Both the position numbers and the translations under genes were made by a program. Positions 42,054 to 45,000 of a DNA stretch of 64,000 nt are shown piece after piece. This DNA comes from Hormiphora californensis (Eukaryota; Animalia; Ctenophora): contig CM035356.1 of assembly GCA_020137815.1 (NCBI GenBank), forward strand, positions 2,480,001 to 2,544,000. Direction: 5' to 3'. Below the pieces are notes generated by a model. The model made no database searches, was not told where the DNA came from, and worked only from the letters and a program-made list of their open reading frames with translations. Numbering within the stretch: position 1 is the stretch's first letter; each line of letters starts with the position of its first letter.

Positions 42054-45000
42054 TCACAGTTTGACACTGTGCCTGCTATTCCTCATACACAGGTACACAT
42101 CAAAGGCAGATGTTTTGGAGACAAGGTAGTGTAGGGGAGTGTTTCCCTTATCATCAGGGCAGTTAATATCTGCACCATACGCAATGAGAAGTGCCGAGGT
42201 GGTCCCCTGAAATGTAATTTTATTGGTTCAACAATCAACAGTCAGGATAGAATGGTTAGGTTAACAACTCCCTGGGTTTCAAATTCACTCCTTGCTGACT
42301 CGAAAAAGGGAGTCAACTAAGTCAACTAGTCTAACTATGACGTCACAACTACAACGTGTTATGACGTACACATACTCACATGTTGCTGGGCGGCGCTCAC
42401 ATGCAGGGCAGTGTGGCCATTCATTCTAGCCTCTGTATCCATTCCATTCTTTAGCAAGAGCTCCAGCAACCCGTCATTACCTTGGGAGAATTGTGTTAAT
42501 AAACAACAATATAATGATACTAAACCAATACAGGGCCACAGGGGGAATTGTGGAGAGGTGTGTTTAGCAATGTGGGTCAGAGCTCAGAGATGCAGAGTTC
42601 CAAGCTGGAAAAACCCCGGAAAAACCCTGTCTGGCGTTGCCAGACCCCGACCCTATTTTTCTGCTTTACTCTGAGTGTGGGACAGACAGGGAGAACAAAA
42701 GGGTGTGGAGAATTCTCCACTAGTGTATACACTGGGACTTGGCCGGTCCAGCTAGTATGGTGTTTGGCCAGTACCTGCAACACACGTTAGTGATAGCATT
42801 ATAACCACATCGCAGTCTGGATGCGGACAAATTCTGAGGTCTCAGTACGGTTACGCAGTCAACAACTTAATATATTGTAAATTTCTTCAGTCAATCAATC
42901 TGCAAACGTTATCAGTTTTACTTTAACTTGAAGAACTTTGTAAGTATCGCGTGAGGGCATCATTTGAGCATCTTCGACGAGCCCCGCAGTTACAACGGTT
43001 CTCTACTAACGTGTGTGCAGTACAACACCATGCTGATACCGACACACCTACTGAATCACTCCCCTTTTTATACCCCTCATTCTGAATAGAAACATTCTTT
43101 GGAGGTTTGTAACATGAGAGATTTAGCACAAATACAAGATAAAGCCTGTCACAAGTATTATACAGAACAAGCAAAAATTGGTATGGAGAATTCTCCACTA
43201 GTGTGTACACTGGGAACCTTGGCCGGTAGAAGCGTGGTGTTTGGCCTGGCATCAGTAATTGACACACACATGGGCTCAAGGCGTGGCCTCAAGCCCCCTG
43301 CTGAAAGCAGCAGCGCCTATAACCTATGTCTGGCCCTGCTACAGTCAGCAGGGGGCTTAGAGACACGTGGGCCTAGATATGTGCGTTGCTACTGTTTACC
43401 ATTGGCCACATTGATGCCTGAGTGAGATCGAGGTCGCGCAGCGACCGAGATCGATCTCACATCTATTCTTCGCGGAGCGAGAATAGGTTGCAATGGAGCC
43501 AATGTTTACCACACCACTGTACCGACAATACAAACATGGCATGACCCCTTTTATACCCTTCATTCAGAATAGAAACTTTCCTTTGAGGTTTGCAACTGTT
43601 GTCTGCTAAACAAACAATTAGCAATGTAATTTTCTACTTAATGTACAAACTGCCATCTGCCCACAGTTGAAGTTTGCCAAATACAACAAACATAGTATCG
43701 AAGGAAAAAGCTCAAAAAGGGTGTGGAGAATTCTCCACTAGCGTGCACGCTGGGAAACTTGGCCGGTACTGACATGGGATCTGGCCAGATAGCGACATCC
43801 AAGGTTCACCTGAAACCTCACTCCTAAACGCCCCAATCTAGCACCATCTCAACTCAAAGACTGGTCCACTACACAACATTTGCGCGAACACCACGCAGGG
43901 GACCGGACGCAAGCCCAAGGGCCAAGTACTTGCAAACTTAGAGCAAGTCCAGGCAAACCTTGAATACCACATTACACCACCGTACCGCAATAACATGAAA
44001 GCATTCCCCTTTTTATACCCATCTTTAAAAAAATTCCTTGCAGGTTTGTAACGTGAGAGGTTGTAGAAATACAAGATAAAGCCTGTCACAAGTATTATAC
44101 AGAACAAGCAAAAAGGGGTGCGGAGAATTCTCCACTAGCATGTACACAGGGAACCTTGGCCGGTCCAGTATAGCGCCTGGCCAGGGAATGTACAAGACAC
44201 GAGGCTGAGGAATGAAACGATATATTGCGACTCGATTATTATTGTGATTGGTGTGAGCCGCAATTATTTAATCGTATCACCATTCTGTGTGGCAGAATGG
44301 TGATCCCCATCATTCCCAACCTCGCATGCTGTACACTGCCATACTGAGACCGACAGATACTCTAATTCTTTCCACTATTTATATCCTGTATTCAGGATAG
44401 AAATGATCCTTGCTAGTTATGGTCTTCTAAATGAATAAGGAATGATCTACTTCCTATTTTGTATGCAATATGTGCATATAATATCTATTCGGAGCTAGGC
44501 TTTTTAGCATGGAGAAATTCACCGAGAATAAAAGGGTGTGAGATAGTTAAATCGTAAAGTGCATCATAGCACTTGAATTGCTCATACTTTATGAGTACGG
44601 ACACAGTGTCAGGCGACTCAATAATGAATTGAATCAACACAGCACATGACATAACATACCGTTGAATGCTGCCAGATGTAGAAGTGATGCCTGTTCCAAC
44701 TCAAGGTCTGGGGTAAAGGTGAGCAGTAGTTCCACCATAGCTAGATCACTTTGTTCCACGGCCAGGTACACCAGAGATCGTCCTGGGAGACTAATATCAC
44801 ACTGTCAGTCAAATTATAGCTTCAGTCACACTGTCAGTCAAATGATTGTTCACACTGTCATACTGTCACACTGTCAGTTAAATGATAGCTCACACTGTCA
44901 CACTTTCGAGTTACGTATCACACTGTCAAGTTTTTCTGTCAGCGATATTAAACTTTGTGTTGCTTAGTAACCAGGTGTGTATCAATTCTGTGAGCCATGT

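Follow-up and report, generated by a model that had tools for sequence, protein, structure and literature searches.

The stretch of Hormiphora californensis DNA analysed here (64,000 nt, hereafter the window) carries four paralogous units on its minus strand at 42.7-44.4 kb, recovered by repeat finding as diverged copies of one another. Positions are those of the window, and the units, their parts, the host intron and its two flanking exons are all given for the minus strand. In the presumed direction of transcription the units are U4 (44111..44354; a predicted RNA of 244 nt, counted from the +1 G to the fourth T of a T-run), U3 (43715..43988; 274 nt), U2 (43174..43526; 353 nt) and U1 (42697..43043; 347 nt), which correspond to the elements A, B, C and D of an earlier reading made from the sequence only. 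HMM and covariance-model searches found no fifth copy within the 64-kb window, and neither the ends nor the interiors have another copy there. All four units lie, in sense orientation, inside one GT-AG intron of phase 1 (42481..44659; 2179 nt) of what is likely an ankyrin-repeat gene of the comb jelly; the neighbouring introns of this gene measure only ~250 and ~170 nt. The upstream exon (44660..44782; Ank_3, E 0.005) and the downstream exon (42380..42480; Ank_2, E 0.0006; frame kept with both neighbours) are ankyrin-like and, together with the frames 45669-45959 and 45024-45227, show weak ankyrin matches that all stay below the Pfam cut-offs. A further host exon lies near 42.2 kb, and the GT-AG junctions of the ankyrin-like frames preserve the frame. 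A search with one exon returned no ortholog of the host gene. To judge from this gene structure, which the earlier reading had left unmentioned, the minus strand across the units is likely transcribed in any case, as host pre-mRNA.

The ends of the units resemble those of independently transcribed genes. A TATA element starts exactly 29 nt upstream of the +1 G in all four (at 44383 in U4, 44017 in U3, 43555 in U2 and 43072 in U1), and it is preceded by a PSE-like element in U3 (44011..44053, TATA included), U2 (43549..43591) and U1 (43066..43108), and by a diverged form of this element in U4 (44377..44419), which shares 61-67% identity with those of the other units over -65..-30. The window contains 72 TATAAAW sites, and the 5' motif of the units is found at +29 from four of them, namely those of the units themselves (which, as copies, are not independent). 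The same +1 G opens a helix in which the 5' end pairs with ACCGGC, a motif that is invariant among the copies and lies close to the 3' end; the start is therefore marked twice, once by the TATA spacing and once by the opening of this basal helix. At the other end, a run of four to five T closes each unit, and no unit contains an internal T4, an absence with a joint probability of 0.001 under the window background, 0.004 with matched T content and 0.04 under dinucleotide shuffles. Type-3 promoters of Pol III are described as a PSE plus a TATA element (PMC9841428).

Conservation is distributed unevenly along the copies. Pairwise identity among the four units is 61-86% over -65..-30 and 73-100% in the TATA element, but only 44-56% over -18..-1; it is 56-94% in the first 20 nt, 64-81% between an inner GGCCA motif and the basal helix and, in a 3' module, 85-93%. 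The variable interiors align at shuffle level in all six unit pairs (z at most 1.2) and are thus mutually unalignable; compared with the rest of the 64-kb window they gave nothing beyond chance matches of 12-20 nt. Judged by these features of the sequence, the marks of a type-3 Pol III gene (a TATA element at fixed distance with a conserved proximal element, and an oligo-T end with no internal run) are present in the units, and the conservation profile among the copies is that of a type-3-like gene.

The inner GGCCA is invariant, lies 18-22 nt before the basal ACCGGC (U4 44178..44182, U3 43782-43786, U2 43242-43246, U1 42765-42769) and is predicted to be unpaired in U1 and U4. By eye, the basal helix shows swapped pairs at position 7 (C-G in U4, A-U in U2 and U3) and at position 12 (C-G in U1, U-A in U4). 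Past this helix lies the conserved 3' module of 45-48 nt (U4 44111..44158, U3 43715-43761, U2 43174-43221, U1 42697-42741), consisting of a linker, two adjacent small hairpins and the T-run; an unbulged hairpin of 6 bp sits 3-4 nt before the U-tail. The sequence-only reading had stated that the 3' hairpins covary. Of 40 cells, 39 indeed keep their pairing. One change is two-sided and four are changes to G-U; all four one-sided changes yield G-U pairs on the minus strand. This pattern is consistent with covariation; however, with four rows the covariation score was equalled by 245 of 500 shuffles. The module is also a string of DNA palindromes that are perfect or nearly so. Its dimerisation, predicted to be favourable, was dropped because it is expected of any palindrome, and a pairing between the first 3' hairpin and the 5' end was dropped as inconsistent across the copies. 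U3 departs from the common plan: it has no base 2, the basal helix is absent from its best fold (pair probability 0), and an alternative GGCC/GGCC hairpin is favoured with a probability of 0.7; in U1, U2 and U4 this hairpin is less stable by 7.5-10 kcal/mol. The two GGCC motifs may form a pairing switch; on the other hand, the missing base, the 6-nt gap that separates its upstream element from the TATA and the preference for another fold would make U3 possibly a decaying copy.

The interiors, which start at nt 18 and stop short of the inner GGCCA, are predicted to comprise an imperfect duplex of ~28 bp with two hairpins on top in U4 (44186..44337), a G-U-rich duplex of ~30 bp with a weak multiloop top in U3 (43790..43971), a branched side domain plus a long arm in U2 (43250..43509) and a long interrupted rod with an AU-rich multiloop top in U1 (42773..43026). 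The predicted folds place a unique imperfect duplex of 22-30 bp just above the conserved GGCCA motif in each unit. On the minus strand, fold z-scores of the interiors (80 dinucleotide shuffles each) are -9.1 for U4, -3.6 for U3, -10.3 for U2 and -3.1 for U1, and on the plus strand -5.6, -2.3, -10.6 and -2.8, respectively; the corresponding values for the whole units are -7.0, -3.2, -8.9 and -4.5 on the minus and -4.3, -1.3, -7.4 and -3.7 on the plus strand. Five flanking and spacer controls ranged from +1.2 to -1.6. The minus strand beats its shuffles in all four units and the spacers do not, but the plus strand is nearly as significant in U1 and U2. The earlier claim that the interiors differ in sequence and are each self-complementary is borne out, since all ten arms quoted for it were found at the expected places on the minus strand, and strong folds persist although the primary sequence is saturated. 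Their description as rod-like hairpins holds for the basal part, whereas all four tops are branched and the longest unbroken helices in the four units measure 12, 6, 14 and 13 bp. Much more stable folds were obtained for three elements in other parts of the window; these elements resemble near-perfect DNA inverted repeats and show no such gene anatomy, so that folding alone is not special in this window.

Pairing by G-U specific to the minus strand had also been proposed as a sign of selection on RNA structure, and here the bias exists but is modest. A strict count over strand-neutral shared helices gave 8 G-U pairs on the minus against 1 on the plus strand (p=0.04), and a loose alignment of the arms gave 39 against 17 (p=0.005), with the excess coming mostly from U3 (17 against 2, compared with 22 against 15 in the other three units); eight control inverted repeats gave 25 against 17 in the loose count. 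The energy difference between minus and plus strand, compared with shuffles, is clear in U4 (z -3.4), weak in U3 (-2.1) and not beyond shuffles in U2 and U1. The host pre-mRNA, too, has the minus strand as its sense strand, and this weakens the bias as proof of stand-alone RNAs. Transcription of the host in sense does not, however, explain the conservation of promoter-like and terminator-like elements, and this anatomy, more than the G-U argument, supports both the call of non-coding RNAs and their assignment to the minus strand.

Several features bear on the history of the copies. By the near-saturated spacer at -18..-1, the copies are old. A 44-nt spacer tract behind U4 (44066..44109) is 98% identical to the tract behind U2 (43129-43172), and the upstream element of U1 is closer to that of U2 than to that of U3; this mosaic points to conversion between the units or to unequal crossover, of recent date at the 44-nt tract. 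In U2, a branched domain of ~100 nt (43402..43502) stands between two copies of a 9-nt direct repeat (at RNA nt 16 and 126) and has the look of a module that was inserted or duplicated, which suggests that interiors can grow by modules. Two mobile-element candidates were set aside. Helitron ends usually have a spacer between the hairpin and CTAG. In the units CTAG abuts the hairpins without it, and a SINE was dropped because the upstream promoter is copied along with each unit.

Comparison with 4227 Rfam families gave no match at gathering score in the window, and over 42400-44700 it returned four chance matches (E 0.75-1.5). ARAGORN found no tRNA in the window, and the units showed no Rfam or ARAGORN match to, and no core motif of, RNase P/MRP, SRP, spliceosomal snRNA, tRNA or small ribozymes. 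Consensus patterns of the A and B boxes occur in none of the four units. TTAGGG is the telomere repeat of ctenophores. Five 6-mer permutations of a template for this repeat were absent from all four units, the template being given as a defining feature of telomerase RNA in PMC9841428.

We therefore favour, with a probability of roughly 80%, the reading of the units as Pol III genes for non-coding RNAs of an undescribed family; they would be real and probably functional, of a kind with constant ends and a variable middle. In the proposed mechanism, Pol III would transcribe each unit from its own type-3-like promoter. The constant end, with its 3' hairpin plus U-tail, would be held by La/LARP7-type proteins, by analogy with 7SK, in which these elements are described as bound by such proteins (PMC3632141), and the variable duplexes would act by their shape on dsRNA-binding partners such as Dicer, ADAR or an innate sensor; the model for this is nc886, whose duplex acts on dsRNA-binding proteins or sensors (PMC10498592). 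Sequence is conserved in the base, the two GGCCA motifs, the twin hairpin and the U-tail but not in the duplexes, which fits fixed protein sites combined with duplexes read by shape. That the constant base docks proteins while the variable duplexes are recognised by shape is nevertheless a tentative suggestion, to which we give somewhat less than even odds.

The sequence-only reading had offered two functions, Drosha-independent precursors of small guide RNAs and dsRNA-like decoys or scaffolds, on the premise that the ctenophore Mnemiopsis is reported to lack Drosha/Pasha and canonical miRNAs and to keep Dicer and Argonaute. The premise fits: Pleurobrachia bachei is tabulated with Dicer, XPO5 and four AGO/PIWI proteins and without Drosha and DGCR8 (PMC4793324), and Mnemiopsis is described in the same way, with Dicer, XPO5 and AGO and without Drosha and DGCR8 (PMC3563456). 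If the units were precursors, the constant base of a Pol III RNA would position Dicer, and the duplex above the GGCCA would yield an Argonaute guide specific to each copy. The predicted presence in each unit of a unique duplex of about small-RNA length above a conserved motif would agree with this, as would the structured endo-siRNA clusters reported to dominate the small RNAs of Mnemiopsis (PMC6211395), and there is a precedent in the BLV cluster, a tandem array of hairpin genes that each have their own sequence and Pol III transcription and yield Drosha-independent pre-miRNAs (PMC4267658). The BLV hairpins, however, are described as viral, with type-2 promoters, 50-55 nt long and ending at the terminator (PMC4267658), whereas the units are cellular, five to seven times longer, branched and built on a constant scaffold. 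In place of the short 3' overhang of Pol III pre-miRNAs and hpRNAs, which would be a Dicer-ready end, the units carry the 45-48-nt 3' extension, and none of their helices runs for more than 14 bp without a break. Moreover, both Mnemiopsis studies report miRNAs as absent (PMC3563456, PMC6211395), and the interiors have no matches in the window beyond the short chance ones. We consider it unlikely that the units are such precursors. The scaffold or decoy option fits better, given the long 3' extension, the frequent helix breaks and a conservation that lies outside the putative guide duplexes.

Alternatively, the units could be a highly diverged and amplified ortholog of one of three Pol III RNAs that are not known from non-bilaterians (7SK, Y RNA and vault RNA) and could do the usual job of that RNA. 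All three classes were sought without success in the early-branching Trichoplax, where they were expected and were missed on account of their fast evolution; in early-branching animals such classes are known to elude searches by homology (PMC2655684). The likeness to 7SK comprises a type-3-like promoter, a length of ~330 nt, a 5' end able to pair near the 3' end to close a helix, and a 3' hairpin before the U-tail (PMC3632141, PMC5499737), and the repeated palindromic GGCC with its possible switch of pairing parallels the GAUC switch of 7SK (PMC5499737). But 7SK is described as one gene with GAUC in its 5' hairpin, compared with four divergent paralogs with GGCC near the 3' end (PMC5499737), and with a bulged 3'-terminal hairpin, compared with the two tiny unbulged hairpins of the units (PMC3632141). 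GAUC occurs once in U4, once in U3, three times in U2 and never in U1, and UGAUC in none; the 7SK hallmark, a pair of GAUC motifs in the 5' hairpin with unpaired U on either side (PMC5499737), was not found in the units, and the GAUC pair is missing in three of the four copies. Y RNAs and sbRNAs share with the units the clustering of paralogs, a Pol III promoter for each copy, paired ends with bulged stems, a copy-specific interior and a U-tail, and constant ends with variable loops in a paralog cluster are their very pattern (PMC4726728). They are, on the other hand, ~100 nt long with the U-tail beside the stem, so that the units (244-353 nt) are 2.5-3.5 times their size, with a basal helix that stops 45-48 nt before the tail and is followed by the twin-hairpin module; their interior is a single-stranded pyrimidine loop as opposed to a long duplex (PMC4726728). 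Their 7-bp helix with a single bulged C and an opposite 3-nt bulge (PMC4726728) has no counterpart in the units, where a helix of 6-7 bp shows a bulged A (U1), a bulged U (U4), an unpaired CA (U2) or no bulge (U3). As to their motifs, UUAUC is absent from all four units, and three units (U1, U2 and U4) have GUG paired to CAC or CAU in their second helix, a weak likeness in view of the motif's length of 3 bp. Vault RNAs and nc886 resemble the units as tandem Pol III paralogs with a terminal helix and a variable middle (PMC10498592, PMC10914904); they are, however, 80-140 nt long (PMC10914904) and have type-2-hybrid promoters with internal boxes, while the units have neither an A nor a B box. 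No match to the 7SK, Y or vault families of Rfam appeared even at E up to 10, and a diverged ortholog seems rather improbable to us.

A reading without selected RNA genes would see the remains of a palindromic DNA element that was duplicated, shaped by independent fold-back insertions and template-switch polishing. The palindrome chain of the 3' module, the near-perfect inverted repeats common in the window, the direct repeats around the U2 module and the plus-strand folds of U1 and U2 would be compatible with this origin. It is quite improbable all the same, because the fixed distance of the TATA, the upstream element and the closing T-runs have been kept while adjacent bases are saturated, T4 is avoided inside the units, the window contains no further copy of ends or interiors, and the one-sided changes of the 3' hairpins go to G-U on the minus strand in four of four cases. 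Quite speculative, and very improbable in our view, is a system of natural programmable shRNA cassettes, in which a fixed Pol III promoter and scaffold would acquire different fold-back inserts from each of which Dicer alone would make its own guides; if true, comb jellies would possess a counterpart of microRNA genes that works without Drosha, or a memory of silencing that is inherited. Least credible are RNAs released from the intron in the manner of snoRNAs, or structures for editing or splicing of the pre-mRNA, with no promoter of their own: the position of four sense units in a single enlarged intron would suit them, but the conserved promoter-like and terminator-like elements would then be needless, and the units have no box C, no H box (ANANNA) in the hinge and an ACA-like triplet that is partly paired, sequestered in a stem and absent from U4.

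Exact-pattern scans with the conserved motifs found no occurrence in viral contigs, metagenomes or prokaryote genomes, and phage collections gave no match to the units; these collections are not aimed at animal genomes. A shorter 18-mer match at one viral locus (L001) lacks the basal motif and the T-run, scores 19.9 bits compared with 90-103 for true copies and was dismissed as chance. One sequencing run, X1, covered neither the units nor the coding stretch 56100-64000 and is uninformative for that reason. The conserved motifs did not occur in the supplementary files searched for two Mnemiopsis papers (all 7 for PMC3563456 and 11 of 12 for PMC6211395), a weak negative for a distant species and for files consisting mostly of coordinates. 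Full-text searches of the openly readable literature brought up no description of such an RNA family in ctenophores, although supplements could hold annotations, and in the literature searched none of 7SK, Y and vault RNAs has been described for ctenophores. Ctenophores may be sister to the rest of the animals. A multi-copy Pol III family in this lineage, which lacks the Microprocessor of the miRNA pathway, would reveal a ctenophore-specific class of RNPs, supply a missing RNA or show a guide route that uses Dicer only, and the shared promoter offers a handle for finding the remaining type-3 Pol III genes of ctenophores. Elsewhere in the window, two frames, one for a carboxylesterase (62148-63791) and one for a GPCR (57191-57967), find their best EukProt matches at 88% and 98% identity (next best 46% and 33%, respectively), in both cases to entries with identifiers of the 'sb/' style, which we take to be gene models of Pleurobrachia bachei.

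Self-complementary loops are frequent in the small hairpins of the four paralogous minus-strand units (U1-U4, predicted type-3 Pol III RNA genes), giving perfect DNA palindromes of 10-16 bp between 42697 and 44182; among these is a GGCC side hairpin, which is present in both U3 and U4, with its closing pair swapped between the two. The palindromic hairpins may represent a dimerisation signal or a product of template-switch polishing. The gene hosting the array (42100-46400, minus strand) is a multi-exon gene with C-terminal ankyrin repeats, for which a search with a single exon as query recovered no relatives. 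A short way beyond U1, the host intron carries two tandem GGAAAAACCC motifs (42607-42630), which resemble the consensus of kappa-B sites.

A spliced plus-strand gene (38700-41830) converges with the ankyrin gene; its last intron includes a 23-bp minisatellite, and its product ends in a Cys/His pattern that by eye is like a CCCH zinc finger, with no Pfam match. Three long, MITE-like inverted-repeat elements (12200-12500, 18200-18490 and 36460-36800; arms 79-98% complementary) ranked highest in fold stability among 250-nt tiles sampled from the window. A plus-strand frame (23388-23822) weakly matches the IRF DNA-binding domain (E 0.0034, below the cut-off) and may be one exon of a gene for an interferon regulatory factor. 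Other coding frames comprise a rhodopsin-family GPCR (57191-57967, plus strand), a protein-kinase exon (60643-61128, minus strand) and a carboxylesterase frame of 548 uninterrupted codons (62148-63791, minus strand).
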